Shown here piece after piece: positions 26,365 to 33,158 of a DNA stretch of 64,000 nt; position 1 is the stretch's first letter, and each line of letters opens with the position of its first letter. The notes below the pieces were generated by a model, which searched no databases, was not told the origin of the DNA, and was given only the letters and a program-made list of their open reading frames with translations. The translations under genes and the position numbers were made by a program. Source of the stretch: Spirochaetaceae bacterium (lineage in GTDB: Bacteria > Spirochaetota > Spirochaetia > DSM-2461); the NCBI GenBank assembly GCA_965224705.1, contig OZ245056.1:1-64000 (forward strand), written 5' to 3'.

Positions 26365-26378
26365 ATAACATCCTCCCA

Positions 26379-26558
26379 GGAGTCTGTCGGACTTACGCCT
26401 CACGGCTCGAAGTCTTAAAGTTCGACAGACTCCCAGGAGCCTGTCGGACCTGCGCCTCACGGCTCGATTTTTGCCCTTCCCTCCAGAAGCAAGCCTCCTG
26501 TCTGATTCTTCCGAGCCGCCTTCGTTTGTTTTTGTCACCTTAAAGCCCGACAGACTCC
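26379..26558 (+). repeat. Tandem pair of family-1 MITE units (55 bp + 123 bp)
   Basis: Units 26379-26433 and 26436-26558, each bounded by GGAG(T/C)CTGTCGGAC...CGACAGACTCC and joined by CA. Confidence 0.88.
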
Positions 26559-26697
26559 TGAAATGTTTCGGACTTCAAGCTGACTGAATACACTCATGTA
26601 CACAATCATTCTGACGAAAAACTCCATTTATTGCAAACCCTCAACGGACGCGTTTCCCTGAGAACTGTCCGGGAGAATCTAACAGAGACTGCTTATT

Positions 26698-26925
26698 TCA
26701 GGCCTTTTTCACCACTATCCTCCACCCGTCTGGTATCCGGGTAACAGAGAAGACCTCATGGCCTTCCAGTTCCATGGATTTCGGCACATTGGCAGCACTC
26801 TCACCATTATCCACAATGAGGGCGAGTACTTGTCCTTTCTCCATTGTTTCAATTTCCAGTTTACTCTTCACAAATGTATAGGGACAAACATCCCCCGACA
26901 GGTTTATTTCACGATCATATTCCAT
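26698..26925 (-). CDS. TusA/YeeD-family sulfur carrier
   Basis: 75 aa; NLSGDVCPY motif, LIVD, NVPKS. Confidence 0.9.
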   Translation of the reverse strand: MEYDREINLSGDVCPYTFVKSKLEIETMEKGQVLALIVDNGESAANVPKSMELEGHEVFSVTRIPDGWRIVVKKA

Positions 26926-26937
26926 CTGAAGCCTGCT

Positions 26938-27849
26938 TCACCGCTCTACAGGGTATTTTTCATCATTGCTCCATTCTATCCAACTGCCGTCGTACAGAGC
27001 AACATTCTCAAAACCAGCTAATTTCAATGCCAGCCAGGTATGGGCACCCCGAACACCAGTCTGGCAGTGTGTTACAATGGTTTTATCAGGGGATGCTCCC
27101 CGAAAAGTATAGAATTCGGAAAGCTCCTCACTGCCCAGAAACTCGGGAATTGATCCGTCCGTATTATTCAAAACCCATTCAATTGACAGAGCACCGGGAA
27201 TGTGTCCTCCACGATTTGCTCGAACATCACTTCCCTCATACTCGCCACTGCTCCGGGTGTCTATAACAACATAGCCGGGAGTCTCAAGATTCTGAAGAAT
27301 TGTGTCACCGTCAACCAGAAGCTGTTCCTGGACATAGGGGATGAATGTACCCCTTACAGGTTTTGAAGGAATCTCAGTACTCAATTCATTCCCGGAATCC
27401 ACCCAGGCTGCATAGCCGCCATTCAGAACAGCCCAGTTCTCATGACCAAGATAGGCCAGGGTCCAGGCAACACGAGAGGCCCAGAGTCCGTTTCCTCCAT
27501 CATAGAGAATCACGGCGGTATCATTTGAAATGCCCAGTTCCTCCAGCCATTCAACCGTTGGTTCAACACCGGGAAACATACCCGGAATGCCGTTCACCGT
27601 CTGGTAATACTCCTTCTGGTCAGCATATAAAGCTCCCTTGATATGACCTGTATTGTATACCTCAATCTTACGGCCAATATCAAGAAATATCAGATTACCG
27701 GCATCCAGGTTTTCAGATACATAACTGACCTCAACCAGTCTGGATGGTAGAACAAGACTGTTCTTCACAGCATCCTGTGATGTACCCATAGCTGCTATCA
27801 ATACACCGACGGCAACAAATAAAGCAGCCGTTATCAACACACGTTTCAT
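26938..27849 (-). CDS. Tandem-domain rhodanese (sulfurtransferase) with N-terminal signal peptide
   Basis: GHIKGA, VLNGG, DTRS, GHIPGA, active loop HCQTGVR, YDGSWIEW; MKR plus hydrophobic N-terminus. Confidence 0.92.
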   Translation of the reverse strand: MKRVLITAALFVAVGVLIAAMGTSQDAVKNSLVLPSRLVEVSYVSENLDAGNLIFLDIGRKIEVYNTGHIKGALYADQKEYYQTVNGIPGMFPGVEPTVEWLEELGISNDTAVILYDGGNGLWASRVAWTLAYLGHENWAVLNGGYAAWVDSGNELSTEIPSKPVRGTFIPYVQEQLLVDGDTILQNLETPGYVVIDTRSSGEYEGSDVRANRGGHIPGALSIEWVLNNTDGSIPEFLGSEELSEFYTFRGASPDKTIVTHCQTGVRGAHTWLALKLAGFENVALYDGSWIEWSNDEKYPVER

Positions 27850-27850
27850 T

Positions 27851-28906
27851 TTATACTCCTTCAGGCATGACAGCCGAATTCATTTTTTCCTGCAATGATT
27901 GCTTCAAGGTTCTCTGCCGATTCCAGATCAAAGCCGTGGCACTCCAATTTCCAATCATTGTAAATACAGTGGCCACGGAACTTGACAGCGCCAGGGCCGA
28001 CAAACCGGTTATCCCATGACCGATGTTGCATCCTCCGGCCAGAGCAGCACCGGTCCCCATCACCAGACCTCCAGAAAACTGGATCAAAGCACGCCGGGGA
28101 TCAGGCAGACGCAGCCGTAAATCCCCGCCTTTCCATGACGCCAGTAATGCTCCTGGTGGAAGAGCGGCCAGCATCCAGGCCGACCAGTTGATCCCCCCCG
28201 CATCTCCAGTCACCAGCCAGGTTCCCCATGCCACAACAGGCTGTATAAAGGAGAGTCCATAATCACGTCCCTCCAACGATGAGAACACCCAGGCAGCCAG
28301 AGCAAGTACACCCACACATACTCCAGTTAAAGGCCACTTCCAACCCGTCGAAAATCGGTTTCCGGGGCTCCGTACAAGGATGTATGCTCCAATTGCCATT
28401 ATTACAGCAACAGCAATCCACCGGCCTGCCCATGGATTTCCCGGCAGGACATGGCCCAGGGAGGGAATGTCACCGGCTATGCTCCATTCAAACTTATTCA
28501 GATATCCACGCAATGGGGAGAGAGGCCCGGTACTCACCATTACTGCCCCGATTGAAAATCCCCCCAAAGCCAGGAAGGAACCCAGCATGCCTTTGGAAGT
28601 ACGATAGCAGGTTCCACTGACACACCCCCCGGCCCATACCATCCCTGCTCCAAACAATAGACCGCCGAGGATAAGCGTCCAGGGTGTAAAGGGGGCCTTC
28701 ATAGGATAGAGAATTCCCATGGAGTCCAGAGCTGTAACGGCTGGAATATTAATGAGAAGAACGAGGATCCATGCTCTCAGTATCGATCTATCTTCCCTGA
28801 AAGCAATACTGCGAAACGCTGTATTCATACAAAATCCACCACGCTGAAGAGTCCATCCCAGCAAGAATCCAGTAATAAGACCACTGCCAACACTCACTAT
28901 CTGCAT
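27851..28906 (-). CDS. YeeE/YedE (TsuA-type) thiosulfate transporter
   Basis: QRGGFC, AGGCVSG, AGGCNIGH conserved Cys motifs; about 9 TM segments. Confidence 0.92.
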   Translation of the reverse strand: MQIVSVGSGLITGFLLGWTLQRGGFCMNTAFRSIAFREDRSILRAWILVLLINIPAVTALDSMGILYPMKAPFTPWTLILGGLLFGAGMVWAGGCVSGTCYRTSKGMLGSFLALGGFSIGAVMVSTGPLSPLRGYLNKFEWSIAGDIPSLGHVLPGNPWAGRWIAVAVIMAIGAYILVRSPGNRFSTGWKWPLTGVCVGVLALAAWVFSSLEGRDYGLSFIQPVVAWGTWLVTGDAGGINWSAWMLAALPPGALLASWKGGDLRLRLPDPRRALIQFSGGLVMGTGAALAGGCNIGHGITGLSALALSSSVATVFTMIGNWSATALIWNRQRTLKQSLQEKMNSAVMPEGV

Positions 28907-28915
28907 CCAATCCTC

Positions 28916-29911
28916 CTAAAAACAGGCGAAGCCCTGACCGGACTTCAATTCAACAGCTTCGAAAGCAACCACTGATCCTTCGCCTGGAAGTTTTCCTGAC
29001 AGTGCAACTCGGTCAGAGTTCGACTCCAGCCGGTAGAGATTTTCTGCCGTGGCCAGCCAGACTCCGCCTGACCCATCAGGGACTGCTCCTCTGCCTCTTT
29101 CCGGCAGACTGTATTGGTTGCTCACCCTGTGCCGCCGCACATCCAGTTTCACCAGATTTCTCCCATCCTGTGCAAGGGCCCAGGCACTCCGGCCATCGGC
29201 ACTGAAACGGGGGATCTCAGCTTTTTTGATACTGATGGACTTCACAATCCGGGCCTTTGATTCATCGACAATTGTCCAACCCCTGCTGTCCGTTCCCCAG
29301 AGATAGCGACCACCGGGGGCCAGGCTCCAGAAAAGGATTCCAGAGGTTTTCGGTACATTTTTAAGCAAACTGCCATCTGATGTTAGAAAAAATTCCAGAT
29401 TTCCCATTCCCCCCCGGTACAGACGAGTCCCGCGACTGCTGACAGCCGGCACCACCTCATCGTAACGTTCATCCACAGAAACACCGGACAGGTTGAATGA
29501 CACGGGATCAGAGATTTCCCCTGCCTTGTGTGAAAAGGAGGTTATCCTGTTTGATGTGGAGCCGACGGCATACAAAACATCTCCCATTGGAGAGAAGACC
29601 AGTCCTGAAAACGGGTAATTCAGTGATAAATCCACCTCCTTCATCTGGTCAGGATTCTCGTAATCCACGGCATAGCCCCGGCCTGTAGAAGAATTCAGCA
29701 CAAAGACATACTTCCCCCCGGGAGTACCCAGAAGAAAATTGCTGTTCCGTGCATTTCTCTGACCAATTTCCCGGCCGTCAACCGCATTCAGTATGTGGAG
29801 GAACTCTCCGCGCAGAAGAAACAGGCGGCTTTCGGCAAAGACTCCATGAATGGAAAACAGAATGCAGAACACGAAAAACCAGACGACCCGGCCGACAGCT
29901 GAAGATTTCAT
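28916..29911 (-). CDS. Exported YVTN/YncE-like beta-propeller ending in GQGFACF
   Basis: Signal peptide; repeated blade motifs TPGGKYVFV, SPMGDVLYA, SSRGTRLY, APGGRYLW, SADGRSAW. Confidence 0.75.
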   Translation of the reverse strand: MKSSAVGRVVWFFVFCILFSIHGVFAESRLFLLRGEFLHILNAVDGREIGQRNARNSNFLLGTPGGKYVFVLNSSTGRGYAVDYENPDQMKEVDLSLNYPFSGLVFSPMGDVLYAVGSTSNRITSFSHKAGEISDPVSFNLSGVSVDERYDEVVPAVSSRGTRLYRGGMGNLEFFLTSDGSLLKNVPKTSGILFWSLAPGGRYLWGTDSRGWTIVDESKARIVKSISIKKAEIPRFSADGRSAWALAQDGRNLVKLDVRRHRVSNQYSLPERGRGAVPDGSGGVWLATAENLYRLESNSDRVALSGKLPGEGSVVAFEAVELKSGQGFACF

Positions 29912-30324
29912 TTTTTGATCACCGTTGGGTATGGTGAAACGACCTTGTCCCGATTGACTGTGAATCCCTTTAATTCGTCGTCGGGTACCGAGTAGATAAC
30001 ATGCACCATCTCGGTATCATTGGCCAGGCGAATATCTTCCAGAGACATGCGAGCCGGTGATTCCGGGTGACTGTGATACACTGCAACAAGGCTGAGACCG
30101 TCATTGCGGGCTGTTTTCATCGCTGTGAATTGTTCCTCTGGGTCCATTGTAAAATGTTCAGGAGATGCATCGGTATTGGTCAGAGGAAGAATCTTCACAG
30201 CCTTCCTGCTGCCATCATCCCCGATTTCACCTGCAAGATATCCACATGCTTCATTGGGCATCTCATTCCGTGCCTGCTGGCCTATGGCCTTGAGAATTTC
30301 TGGCGGTACATTGAGGTTTCTCAT
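29908..30324 (-). CDS. JAMM/MPN+ metalloprotease (Mec/HcyD-like)
   Basis: PNEACG and YHSHP...MSLED JAMM motif. Confidence 0.92.
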   Translation of the reverse strand: MRNLNVPPEILKAIGQQARNEMPNEACGYLAGEIGDDGSRKAVKILPLTNTDASPEHFTMDPEEQFTAMKTARNDGLSLVAVYHSHPESPARMSLEDIRLANDTEMVHVIYSVPDDELKGFTVNRDKVVSPYPTVIKK

Positions 30325-31148
30325 TGCCTTACTTCCCCTTCGGGAACTTTCAGTGTACAGACCTCCTGTTGATATTCCACCAGTTCATCGGGGAGTAAAC
30401 CGCCTTGAGTCATGGGCAGTGCCCACTGAGTTCTTTTAACCGGGACTGTCCGAAAATCCATGGTGAAAGCGTCAAAAGTAAGGATGCGGTCAGTGAGCAG
30501 TTCTCCTGTACCAATGAGGTACTTCAGAGCTTCGGCAGCCTGAATTGTTCCAAGAATGCCGGCAATCGCTCCCAGGACACCGGCCTCCGAGCAGGATGGA
30601 ACAGCATCAGGCGGCGGCGGCTGACGGTACACACAGCGGTAGGATGCAGAGCCGGGAACATGGGTGAGTGTTTGACCCCTGAAGCGAAGAATTCCGCCCT
30701 GGTTAAATGCCTTTCCTTCGAGAATACAGGCATCATTCACCAGGAACTTGGAAGGAAAATTATCTGTCCCCTCCAGTATGAAGTCGTAATCCCGAATCAA
30801 ATCCCGGACATTGGAGGCATCTATACGGCAGGGATAAGTTTTCACGCTGACATCAGGATTCAGGGATTCCAATGTTGCTCTGGCTGAGTCCACCTTTCGT
30901 CTGCCAACATCAGTTGTATGATGGAGAATTTGCCGCTGAAGATTGGACAGTTCAACGACATCGGCATCAACAATCCCAATAGTCCCGATGCCGGCAGCTG
31001 CCAGATAGGTTGCTATGGGAGAGCCCAGTCCTCCTGCTCCAATAACCAGGACCCGGCTGTCAAGGAGTTTTTTCTGTCCCACGCCTCCCACATCCTTGAG
31101 AAGTATGTGTCTGCTGTATCGTTCAATTTGTTCATTTGTAAAACTCAT
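30321..31148 (-). CDS. ThiF/MoeB-family adenylyltransferase (E1-like, HcyF-like)
   Basis: RYSRH, GAGGLG, SNLQRQ, DNF, PSCSEAGVLG. Confidence 0.93.
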   Translation of the reverse strand: MSFTNEQIERYSRHILLKDVGGVGQKKLLDSRVLVIGAGGLGSPIATYLAAAGIGTIGIVDADVVELSNLQRQILHHTTDVGRRKVDSARATLESLNPDVSVKTYPCRIDASNVRDLIRDYDFILEGTDNFPSKFLVNDACILEGKAFNQGGILRFRGQTLTHVPGSASYRCVYRQPPPPDAVPSCSEAGVLGAIAGILGTIQAAEALKYLIGTGELLTDRILTFDAFTMDFRTVPVKRTQWALPMTQGGLLPDELVEYQQEVCTLKVPEGEVRQ

Positions 31149-31174: not shown

Positions 31175-32410
31175 CTACTCAAGAGCCTGTTTGAAATCAT
31201 CAATTAGATCGGAAACGGCCTCCAAACCAACAGAAACTCGAATAAGATCATCCGATACTCCAGCCTCTTCCTGAGCCGCCTTTGTCTGTTCCCGGTGAAT
31301 TGTAGATTCGAGATGCAGGGCCAGTGTCCGGGAGTCTCCAAGATTGGTTTGAACTCTGACAAGCCTCAGCCGTCTGAGAGCATTGAAGGCTCTTTCGCGG
31401 CTTCCTGCCCGAAATGTCAACAGACCGCCCCAGAGTCCTCCAAAATACTTTGACGCACGCTCATGCCAGGGGGATGAAGTCAATCCAATCTGGGAGACTT
31501 CAGGAATATCCGGTCGATCTTCCAGATACCTTGCCAGGGCCAGGGCATTTGAGCTGTGACGATTCATGCGGAGTTCAAGGGTATCTGCTCCCAACAGGGC
31601 AATGTAGGCATCGAAGGGAGAAAGGGCTCCGCCAAGATTCTGCCGGGAAACTTTTTTCATATAGACCAGGAAGGCCATATCAGAGCCTGTCAGCTTTACC
31701 ATATTTCTGATGGCAGTACCGGGGAATTTCTTCCACTCATAAACTCCTGTATCGGTAACACAACCCGATAAAACAGTTCCGTTTCCTGTGAGAAATTTTG
31801 TTCCAGACTGAACCGTCAGGGATACTCCATGATTTCCGGCCTCCAGCATGACAGGAGTCACCAGAGTGGTGTCCAGTACCAGAGGAAGCTGGGCTTCTCT
31901 GGCCAGGGAAGCCCAGGCATCAATATCAGGGACATCCATTCGAGGATTCCCCAACGCTTCAAGAAACAGAAATCTAGTTTTTGATGACAGAGCTTCTTTG
32001 ACACCGGAAAAATCGTCAGGATCCACATAGTGAACAGCAACTCCAGAACGTACGACCGTGTTGTCGAAACAGGATCGAGTTCCTCCGAAAAGGCTTGTGG
32101 AGGCAATGATTTCCTCCCCTGATTCTACCAGAGCTGTAAAAAGTGCAGTGATTCCGGCCATACCGGTTGAATAGACAGCCGATCCCCTGGCCCCATCTTC
32201 CATGGCCGTCCATCGACGTTCCAGAGTCGTGATGGTCGGATTGGAAAGCCGACCGTAAACATGGCCAGCCGTCCGACCGGCAAAAATATCTTCCAATTCG
32301 TCCGGACCCTCAGAGGAAAATGCCGCAGACGCCATAATGGGCATAACGGATGCACCATTCCAATCCTTTGAGTTTAATCCGGCATGCAATGCACGTGTAG
32401 CGAATTCCAT
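31175..32410 (-). CDS. PLP-dependent O-acetylhomoserine sulfhydrylase-like enzyme (MetY family)
   Basis: YGRLSNPT, TGMAGI, LFGGT, QSGTKF (PLP Lys), NLGDSRTL, IRVSVGLE. Confidence 0.88.
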   Translation of the reverse strand: MEFATRALHAGLNSKDWNGASVMPIMASAAFSSEGPDELEDIFAGRTAGHVYGRLSNPTITTLERRWTAMEDGARGSAVYSTGMAGITALFTALVESGEEIIASTSLFGGTRSCFDNTVVRSGVAVHYVDPDDFSGVKEALSSKTRFLFLEALGNPRMDVPDIDAWASLAREAQLPLVLDTTLVTPVMLEAGNHGVSLTVQSGTKFLTGNGTVLSGCVTDTGVYEWKKFPGTAIRNMVKLTGSDMAFLVYMKKVSRQNLGGALSPFDAYIALLGADTLELRMNRHSSNALALARYLEDRPDIPEVSQIGLTSSPWHERASKYFGGLWGGLLTFRAGSRERAFNALRRLRLVRVQTNLGDSRTLALHLESTIHREQTKAAQEEAGVSDDLIRVSVGLEAVSDLIDDFKQALE

Positions 32411-32414
32411 GAAC

Positions 32415-32639
32415 TCATTCCATCCTCAAACCGTTCCCTCCACCCATAAAGTAGAGAAATTCCAAAACATCGCCTTCAGTTACATGGAGTTTGTCAAAGT
32501 CCGCCCTTTCCAGAATCTCTCCATTGTGCTGGACAGAAACCATATCGGGATCTGGAACCTCTTTCAGGGCCAGGAGTTCTTTGATGGTGAGTTTATCCAT
32601 GGCCAGTGACTCTCTGCTTCCATTGATTTCTATGGTCAT
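32415..32639 (-). CDS. ThiS-like sulfur carrier with C-terminal extension after the GG motif (HcyS-like)
   Basis: MTIEING, VQHNGEIL, EGDVLEFLYFMGGG then NGLRME; GGAGG SD before ATG 32639. Confidence 0.9.
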   Translation of the reverse strand: MTIEINGSRESLAMDKLTIKELLALKEVPDPDMVSVQHNGEILERADFDKLHVTEGDVLEFLYFMGGGNGLRME

Positions 32640-32677
32640 TGCATCCTCCATTACTCTCTTGTACTGCTTTTTCCTAA

Positions 32678-32709
32678 ACCATACTTAATAAACTGAATTA
32701 GTCAAGTAT
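32678..32709 (-). promoter_or_regulatory. Sulfur-operon promoter overlapped by an IscR/Rrf2-type operator
   Basis: TTGACT, 16 bp, TATGGT; ATACTTGACTAATTCAGTTTATTAA (32685-32709) matches 21/25 positions of the IscR type-1 consensus as I recall it. Confidence 0.6.
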
Positions 32710-32754
32710 TAAATCATTGAAGAAAGGATTTTTTTATAATGAGTCTGGAATCCA

Positions 32755-33041
32755 GGAGTCGGTCGAACTTTAAGGTGACAAAAACAAACGAGGCGGCTCG
32801 GAAGAAGCAAGCAGGAGGCCTGCTTCTGGAGGGAAGGGCAAAAACTGATCCGTGAGGCGTAAGTCCGACAGACTCCCAGGAGTCTGTCGGACTTTGAGAC
32901 TTCGAGGCGATTTTTGATGTTTTTTTTCCGATACAAGGCGGCAAAAGCGGAGCGTAGCTGGGCTACGTGAGCATTTTGGCAACGCCGTAGCGGGAAAAAA
33001 GGGCAAAAATCGAGCCGTGAGGCGTAAGTCCGACAGACTCC
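32755..33041 (-). repeat. Tandem pair of family-1 MITE units (122 bp + 163 bp)
   Basis: 32755-32876 is the inverse of 26436-26558; 32879-33041 is the inverse of 1-158; perfect 16-bp palindromic junction. Confidence 0.9.
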
Positions 33042-33158
33042 CAGGCTTATTATTGCGATATAAGATTTACTTCAGACTGGTTCCAGAGAAGCAGAAGTAT
33101 AAGGACTGCCGCATGCGGAATGGAGGCCTTTTTTACATCTTCTAATGCCGAGGACTAT

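Follow-up and report, generated by a model that had tools for sequence, protein, structure and literature searches.

An unnamed family of exported spirochaete beta-propellers with an invariant C-terminal cysteine is linked to one clade of YeeE sulfur transporters

The window is the whole stretch of DNA that was analysed (64,000 nucleotides; positions 1 to 64,000 of contig OZ245056.1 from a Spirochaetaceae bacterium). An operon on its minus strand consists of eight genes in the order thiS, metY-like, thiF, JAMM, propeller, yeeE, two-domain rhodanese, and tusA. The first gene (32415..32651; PF02597, TIGR01683) encodes a ThiS-type sulfur carrier with an extension past its GG motif (...FMGGGNGLRME). 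It is followed by the genes for an O-acetylhomoserine sulfhydrylase-like PLP enzyme that is MetY-like (31175..32410; PF01053, with TIGR01326 as the best NCBIfam match, below its cut-off), a ThiF/MoeB-type adenylyltransferase (30321..31148; PF00899), and a JAMM protease (29908..30324; PF14464). The propeller gene (28916..29911) encodes P0001, an exported seven-bladed beta-propeller of an unnamed spirochaete family that was recognised from its ORF, an AlphaFold2 model, and a fold search. The last three genes encode a YeeE/YedE sulfur transporter of a distinct clade (27851..28906; PF04143), an exported two-domain rhodanese with the active loop CQTGVRG that contains Cys262 (26938..27849; PF00581 twice), and a TusA/YeeD-like cytoplasmic sulfur carrier with a VCPYT motif (26698..26925; PF01206). 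The first-pass annotation had described the propeller gene as overlapping the JAMM gene and lying 9 bp from yeeE, and the coordinates agree: the overlap with the JAMM gene (29908-30324) is 4 bp and the gap to the yeeE start (28906) is 9 bp.

A sigma-70-like promoter candidate, TTGACT / TATGGT, lies ahead of the operon (32678..32705, minus strand); it matches the consensus, and such matches are equally common in shuffled sequences. A weak hint comes from RNA-library contigs of two samples in one study, which end at 32661 and 32656, and from a DNA run, which continues. One RNA-library contig spans 28467-32661, including the whole propeller gene; the remainder, down to 26669, is mostly covered by two others. 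These contigs, read with no silent stretch as control, suggest that the operon is transcribed. The stretch is present in sequencing runs labelled mollusc metagenome from two studies. Palindromic REP-like repeats flank the operon (window 26368-26560 and 32752-33045), and their 17-base core has about 235 copies in the genome with at most one mismatch. Upstream of the module or of its Rrf2 gene, a TTGAC box about 17 bases ahead of a TATACT-like box was seen by eye, with no control, at loci L021, L022, L023, L024, L100, L101, and L110 and at window 32678-32705, several of them followed by a similar A/T-rich stretch. Judged from these sequences, the boxes are possibly a shared operator. A CymR-like Rrf2 gene is found far from the operon in the window's genome (G000:C1:2850850-2851263, locus L044), and it resembles the Rrf2 genes that head the operon in L001, L021, L026, and L110.

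The YeeE encoded in the window keeps Cys26, Cys95, Cys293, and Arg214, which correspond to C22, C91, C293, and R215 of Spirochaeta thermophila YeeE in an alignment made via the TsuA-type locus. The YeeE-YeeD systems of E. coli and S. thermophila (TsuA-TsuB) have the same three channel cysteines and outer Arg, followed by a TusA-like carrier with a CP motif. However, the YeeE of the window is only 32% identical to the TsuA-type protein and scores below the TsuA cut-offs (193 bits against 400 for NF052577; 137 against 645 for NF041049). Its clade comprises about 109 clusters at an identity of at least 44%, and the named organisms among them are all spirochaetes. C26 is conserved in 105/109 of these clusters, and C95, C293, and R214 in 109/109. 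The small residues found at the positions of S. thermophila YeeE K67 and E241 are not distinctive, as E. coli has Gly at both. The propeller module also differs from TsuA-TsuB in having two exported partners, the propeller and the rhodanese, whereas the TsuA-type locus L037 has neither. Cys262 of the rhodanese is invariant in 120/120 homologs, and a hydrophobic N-terminus of the exported type is found in 111/120.

Several variants of these partner genes were observed. In L005 (10853-12886) a single ORF of 677 aa encodes both YeeE and the rhodanese, and the rhodanese signal stretch is retained in it, likely as an extra membrane helix; this is a single case that may reflect a lost stop. A second two-domain rhodanese is often found beside the module (L023, L024, L100-L105, L108, L109, L112, and L113), mostly without an obvious signal peptide and sometimes divergently transcribed. 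About 95 of 401 Spirochaetia genomes contain weak two-part matches to the YeeE profile, an N-half in an ORF of about 240 aa and a C-half in an adjacent one of about 190 aa, which by their sequences are likely split YeeE/YedE-type pairs. In L039 (G327) a distant YeeE follows an exported rhodanese, and no tailed propeller is found in the 4 kb fetched.

P0001 is translated from 28916-29911 on the minus strand as a protein of 331 aa that ends ...VELKSGQGFACF*, with KSGQGFACF as its C-terminal residues. Its only cysteines are residues 16 and 330. Cys16 lies within the hydrophobic N-terminal stretch, the core of a signal peptide (residues 1-26; 29834..29911) that was assigned by inspection of the sequence, has a basic start, and would be cleaved after VFA. 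Cys330 (codon 28922-28924) lies in a C-terminal tail, K323-F331 (28919..28945), which was delimited by conservation and pLDDT and extends beyond the strand that closes the propeller. No significant Pfam or NCBIfam match was obtained for P0001, and at E 0.001 none of TIGR03866, NF052280, and TIGR02276 was matched.

The AlphaFold2 model of mature P0001, built on a 50-row alignment, is a seven-bladed propeller (mean pLDDT 94, pTM 0.91). It consists of seven four-stranded blades in a ring that is closed by the final strand (residues 314-321). A second member that is 24% identical to P0001 has the same predicted fold and the same unplaced tail; the last 3-4 residues have pLDDT below 50 in both monomer models. 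The unplaced tail fits a mobile arm, with the reservation that low pLDDT is common in terminal tails and is no proof of mobility. The claim in the first-pass annotation of an exported propeller with a penultimate cysteine was therefore borne out by the positions of the two cysteines, by the AlphaFold2 propeller, and by the retention of the tail in relatives. The conserved residues are T63-P-G-G, D83/E85, F106-S-P-M-G, H128, R160/T162/R163, P199/R202, D216/E217/R219/R221, and R259. Part of the conserved loops is generic to YVTN blades; the Cys tail, the N-R-R-G-T-R loop, and the D-E-x-R-x-R loop are specific to the family. From the AlphaFold2 strand order, the conservation, and standard propeller topology, the conserved Arg-rich residues are predicted to share the face from which the tail exits. 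In this placement, which is read from the strand order, they would occupy the loops that follow strands one and three in every blade.

The fold search returned generic YVTN, lactonase, and WD40 propellers, none of which stands out. The best match is 1L0Q, a YVTN surface-layer domain (Z 28.1, rmsd 2.9, 284 aligned residues). The YVTN/YncE-type propellers (1L0Q, YncE, NirF, hydrazine synthase beta, and AztD) have the same fold and blade motifs at 11-17% identity, and P0001 does not reach the family-level score of YncE or of the PQQ-dependent catabolism-associated propellers (NF052280, TIGR03866). Sulfur enzymes with a seven-bladed propeller are also among the matches, namely thiocyanate dehydrogenase (Z 24.4) and selenium-binding protein (Z 22.8).

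The copper-dependent propeller oxidoreductases that act on thiols and thiocyanate need several conserved His residues as copper ligands. H128 is the single conserved His of the propeller family, and a copper site is unlikely because there is only one. The sulfur enzymes raise the reading that the tail folds into the conserved face, where Cys330 would be the nucleophile of a periplasmic enzyme that produces the YeeE substrate by cleavage of polythionates, polysulfides, or organic disulfides, with H128 and E217 as possible catalytic residues. Thiocyanate dehydrogenase (5F75) and methanethiol oxidase/SELENBP1 are likewise seven-bladed and act on sulfur compounds, and according to the available text of PMC13603461 a relevant Cys is located close to the C-terminus of the methanethiol oxidases. 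However, that text gives these enzymes as copper-dependent, and they are larger (455-474 residues) than the family described here. Their fold matches do not rise above those of generic propellers, and in neither monomer model is the tail packed on the propeller. We consider this enzymatic reading very unlikely.

The family was first delimited by a word search, which gave 9 relatives with 26-60% identity, 9/9 ending in G[QE]GFACF. A profile search of 1.84 billion representatives was then used, from which the best 150 matches were taken. Together with the set of the word-search relatives, these gave 51 family-length proteins, of which 47 terminate in [FY]ACF (in two cases with one further residue). 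In three of the four proteins without the tail (P0045, P0073, and P0112) the match stops early. In the fourth, P0018, the N-terminal two thirds of the propeller are joined to the C-terminal domain of a rhodanese, likely by an intra-operon deletion or a mis-assembly. The long matches among those listed were 107 unrelated repeat propellers, which served as a control: a Cys lies in the last three residues of 1/107, and the [FY]ACF tail, which might have marked fusions, ends 0/107.

Across 60 distinct tails, A-C-F is invariant and is preceded by F or Y in 60/60, which gives the consensus x-G-[EQG]-G-[FY]-A-C-F. The A-C-F tail in the family is more than chance, and the median pairwise identity of 19 genome-derived members is only 22%. 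The first-pass annotation had likened the tail to the Gly-rich arm of SoxY and had staked its proposal on conservation of the terminal cysteine. The cysteine is indeed invariant; the glycine part of the likeness is weaker than had been stated, as the two glycines are present in 43/60 and 44/60 tails and it is F/Y-A-C-F that is fixed. A second Cys is found beyond residue 55 in 0/47 members and beyond residue 70 in 0/21 genome-derived members, to be read against non-family propellers, in which a Cys-free window of 260 aa occurs in about one third of cases. The tail thiol, as the single Cys of the mature protein in these members, has no intramolecular partner. Members differ in the synonymous codons they use and in which of the three stop codons ends the gene, and selection therefore acts on the tail peptide. 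The same variation led us to reject the tail region as a DNA or ribosome-binding signal for yeeE. No Cys-to-Sec change and no stop inside any match were seen, in a protein search that could miss such variants. A hydrophobic N-terminal stretch was detected by a simple hydropathy test in 41/44 full-length members; the remaining three appear to be truncated at the N-terminus. Members of a divergent subgroup (L055-L068) are longer, at about 350-400 aa, and have x-G-[SNT]-F-A-C-F as their ending; most of them have no ThiS/MetY genes nearby.

There is no dedicated Pfam or NCBIfam model for the family, and its members match generic propeller models only. Partial matches to TIGR03866, NF052280, and TIGR02276 occur in up to 27/50 members, with best E-values of 3.3e-25 for TIGR03866 (27/50) and 8.7e-11 for NF052280 (17/50). 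Where the source annotation names the members, they are YncE or hypothetical. The ESM Atlas gave generic YncE, NirF, and lactonase clusters only, and a scan of viral contigs gave no relatives. No published description was found in a literature search that had supplements and most subscription journals outside its scope.

The tailed propeller is tightly linked to yeeE, as the first-pass annotation had expected homologs to be linked to sulfur genes. A pattern scan of species-representative genomes gave 7 loci, all titled Spirochaetia, Spirochaetales, or Spirochaetaceae, and metagenomes gave six further loci; the range beyond Spirochaetota was probed with narrow patterns only. In a phylum set of 401 genomes, 13 passed the E-value, of which 5 have the tailed propeller and the other 8 have generic propellers without the tail. 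The close YeeE is found in the same 5 genomes only, among 10 with any YeeE match. In a class set of 401 Spirochaetia genomes, the propeller is found in 24 and the close YeeE clade (at least 456 bits; next match 329) in 23, all of them among the 24. The 24th genome is 82% complete, and its propeller gene lies at a contig end. Each of the 21 complete genes encodes the [FY]ACF ending and sits directly upstream of yeeE; contig ends truncate three further matches. At the three next-nearest YeeE loci, one of which is of the TsuA type, no propeller is found within the 1.5 kb fetched per side.

Among 23 wide loci, the rhodanese is found in 23, yeeE in 22, and tusA in 21, with the misses at contig ends. 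From these neighbour counts, the core module consists of propeller, yeeE, rhodanese, and tusA. The position of yeeE beside the propeller is fixed, and that of the rhodanese varies among loci. Other neighbours are ThiS, ThiF, and JAMM (9 each), MetY-like (8), CymR-like Rrf2 (6), and cysK/cysM (4); no amino-acid biosynthesis or CymR-like gene is found nearby in 12/23. The sets of loci and genomes overlap and the genomes are kin, so all these counts are descriptions and the co-occurrence is not independent evidence. The pairwise distances of propeller and YeeE are correlated (Spearman 0.76, 19 pairs), which is not evidence of partnership, because shared descent gives the same.

With JAMM near the propeller in 9/23 wide loci, its overlap with the propeller gene, which the first-pass annotation had pointed out, is incidental. 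An action of JAMM on the propeller tail was rejected for the same count, for the absence of a terminal GG in the tail, and for the ThiS extensions, which account for JAMM: all 8 related ThiS proteins examined have residues beyond the GG motif. By analogy with the Wolinella pathway, JAMM probably trims this C-terminal extension. In Wolinella, the protein-thiocarboxylate route to homocysteine uses HcyS, HcyD, HcyF, and MetY, with sulfide supplied by sulfite reductase. The operon in the window resembles it in having an extended ThiS, JAMM, ThiF, and a MetY-like gene, but no sulfite reductase was found in its genome, and the YeeE module occupies that position. In L002 (8308-9318) and L047 (3-911), a single ORF of 336 aa (…FMGGGAFSEEQIKRYSR…) encodes an in-frame fusion of ThiS and ThiF, and release of the ThiS end would require cleavage of this precursor by the neighbouring JAMM; in L002 there is no metY nearby.

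The invariant cysteine tail and the one-to-one pairing with one YeeE clade beside sulfur-transfer genes make it very probable that the propeller is a dedicated, Cys-using partner of this clade in sulfur uptake. An assimilatory role is indicated because the CymR-like Rrf2, cysK/cysM, and ThiS/ThiF/JAMM genes are its neighbours. The opposite direction has also to be weighed, namely that the module exports excess sulfane sulfur or handles selenium and that the tail catches the YeeE output. YedE/YedF relatives annotated to selenium metabolism give weak matches, and half of the wide loci (12/23) are without the assimilatory neighbours mentioned above. However, the selenium-type models score far below cut-off, no Cys-to-Sec change was seen, and the CymR-like, cysK/M, and metY neighbours indicate uptake. 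We regard export or selenium handling as extremely unlikely.

In the window's genome, which is 95% complete, neither soxY nor a NIR_SIR sulfite reductase nor Sbp/CysP was found. Among the carrier genomes (the window's genome and five others), soxY is present in 0/6 and NIR_SIR sulfite reductase is absent in 5/6 and present in 1/6; Sbp/CysP is absent in 4/5 and present in 1/5. The missing sulfite reductase in 5/6 genomes fits the import of sulfur that is already at the sulfane level. CysM, the cysteine synthase that uses thiosulfate, is found at two loci (L108, typed; L109, a near copy). In the window's genome, CysD- and CysN-like genes are followed by threonine-synthase-like and aminotransferase-like genes (G000:C1:2384262-2389824), a cluster that by eye is possibly for cysteate or sulfonolipid rather than for sulfate assimilation, and a separate PAPS-reductase-family gene lies at 1663217-1664254.

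In the available text of PMC7449682, thiosulfate lies in the periplasmic hollow of S. thermophila YeeE, next to C293 and under R215. The characterised YeeE/YeeD pairs import thiosulfate, and the accessible parts of PMC7449682 and PMC11073785 describe no periplasmic partner; the latter states that before YeeD no YeeE-associated protein was clearly defined. In the portion of PMC11582611 at hand, direct Cys-to-Cys transfer across gaps of 7 A is doubted and the transported species is left undecided. For cable bacteria, periplasmic rhodaneses are proposed in the available text of PMC13047784 to make thiosulfate for YeeE, with no carrier, and the periplasmic sulfur-transfer components are left open in that of PMC13510729.

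The nearest functional likeness is found in SoxYZ/SoxT1A of Hyphomicrobium denitrificans, where an exported protein likewise carries a conserved Cys on its C-terminal arm and is proposed to feed a YeeE-type channel, and where a rhodanese or TusA inside is a feature in common with the propeller module (available text of PMC11582611; arm, PMC11237559). The hand-over from SoxY to SoxT is itself a proposal there (PMC11582611, in the part available). The propeller family, like SoxY, has a conserved Cys on the C-terminal arm of an exported protein, its flexibility being read from low pLDDT only. It differs from SoxY in its aromatic-flanked [FY]ACF motif, against the VTIGGC given in the available text of PMC11237559, in its seven-bladed propeller in place of the SoxY beta-sandwich, and in its assimilatory rather than energy-yielding context. 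PF13501 (SoxY) has no match in P0001, in the 50 members, or in the window's genome.

We consider it on balance probable that Cys330 is a covalent carrier of sulfane sulfur, which would pass from the rhodanese to Cys330, YeeE, and TusA for assimilation. A sulfur carrier is the simplest reading because the tail offers a lone, invariant, exposed thiol that is paired one-to-one with a cysteine-relay channel and is encoded beside an exported sulfurtransferase that needs an acceptor. The exported rhodanese would take the sulfane sulfur off thiosulfate or polysulfide, and the sulfite would stay behind on the outside. Cys330 would be the acceptor thiol of the Cys262 persulfide and would become a persulfide or S-thiosulfonate. 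The conserved propeller face would dock near YeeE, and the F-A-C-F end would enter the periplasmic hollow. There Cys330 would hand the sulfur to Cys293, as an extra outer cysteine before the known relay of Cys293, Cys95, Cys26, and TusA. TusA would then supply ThiS/ThiF/MetY, which lead to homocysteine, or CysK/CysM, which lead to cysteine. All of these transfer steps are drawn from the established chemistry of rhodanese, TusA, and YeeE, and the thiocarboxylate route from that of Wolinella. The first-pass annotation had proposed sulfur capture and hand-over to YeeE or the exported rhodanese; its foundation holds, in the conserved tail Cys and the linkage to yeeE and rhodanese, and the loading and transfer of sulfur stay at the level of what may be deduced from it. 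A three-chain prediction of YeeE, rhodanese, and propeller gave scores of 0.41, 0.09, and 0.17, with a median below the 0.32 mark and with no control complexes, and these scores favour neither binding nor its absence.

Several findings count against this carrier mechanism: the lack of a VTIGGC motif, the lack of a described periplasmic partner for the characterised YeeE/YeeD pairs, the doubt about direct Cys-to-Cys transfer in PMC11582611, the sulfite reductase in 1/6 and Sbp/CysP in 1/5 genomes, and CysM at two loci, which suggests that intact thiosulfate reaches the cytoplasm there. A second reading is non-covalent capture, where the Arg-rich face would bind intact thiosulfate or polythionate in the manner of CysP, for a channel that lacks an ABC binding protein, the tail thiol would only extend the hydrogen-bond relay of YeeE, and the rhodanese would act separately. 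The many conserved Arg residues on one face, the CysM genes, the absence of Sbp/CysP in 4/5 carrier genomes, and the variable position of the rhodanese beside the fixed position of yeeE are in its favour, as is the view in the available text of PMC7449682 that YeeE moves thiosulfate by S-H-S hydrogen bonds. However, the rhodanese is found in 23/23 wide loci and is of the exported type in 111/120 homologs, a periplasmic rhodanese needs an acceptor thiol, and a lone invariant thiol is more simply a reactive one. We therefore hold non-covalent capture to be unlikely.

The tail might instead plug the periplasmic hollow of YeeE or the active site of the rhodanese by bonding reversibly to Cys293 or Cys262 in a disulfide or polysulfide bridge, and so shield that thiol from oxidation or switch uptake off without carrying sulfur in bulk. 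Its invariant aromatic flanks and fixed C-terminal Phe resemble a docking peptide, and the one-to-one pairing with the YeeE clade would suit such a role. Against this, a full relay of sulfur carriers is co-encoded, which suggests flux, and a scaffold of 305 residues with its own conserved face exceeds the need of a plug, so that a gate or protector seems distinctly unlikely.

The family is real, unnamed, and sharply defined, and the transport module is a variant of the known YeeE-YeeD core with two added exported partners. The family merits its own profile, as its members are now labelled YncE or hypothetical. With its four genes, the module offers a compact and complete system for tests, in which a single residue has to be mutated. 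If sulfane sulfur is what the tail carries, as we favour, it would be a SoxY-like arm on an unrelated scaffold that is used for assimilation. It is conceivable, though we lean slightly against it, that YeeE-type channels have a general, so far unrecognised outer step in which a periplasmic carrier with a C-terminal Cys delivers covalent sulfane sulfur, and that such carriers were invented repeatedly on unrelated folds (SoxY and the propeller). On that view the family would be the first carrier of this kind for sulfur assimilation, and spirochaetes that lack sulfite reductase could take up the reduced sulfur atom of thiosulfate or polysulfide alone, with sulfite remaining outside. The carrier mechanism, if true, would also explain how the ThiS-thiocarboxylate route can be fed in genomes without sulfite reductase.
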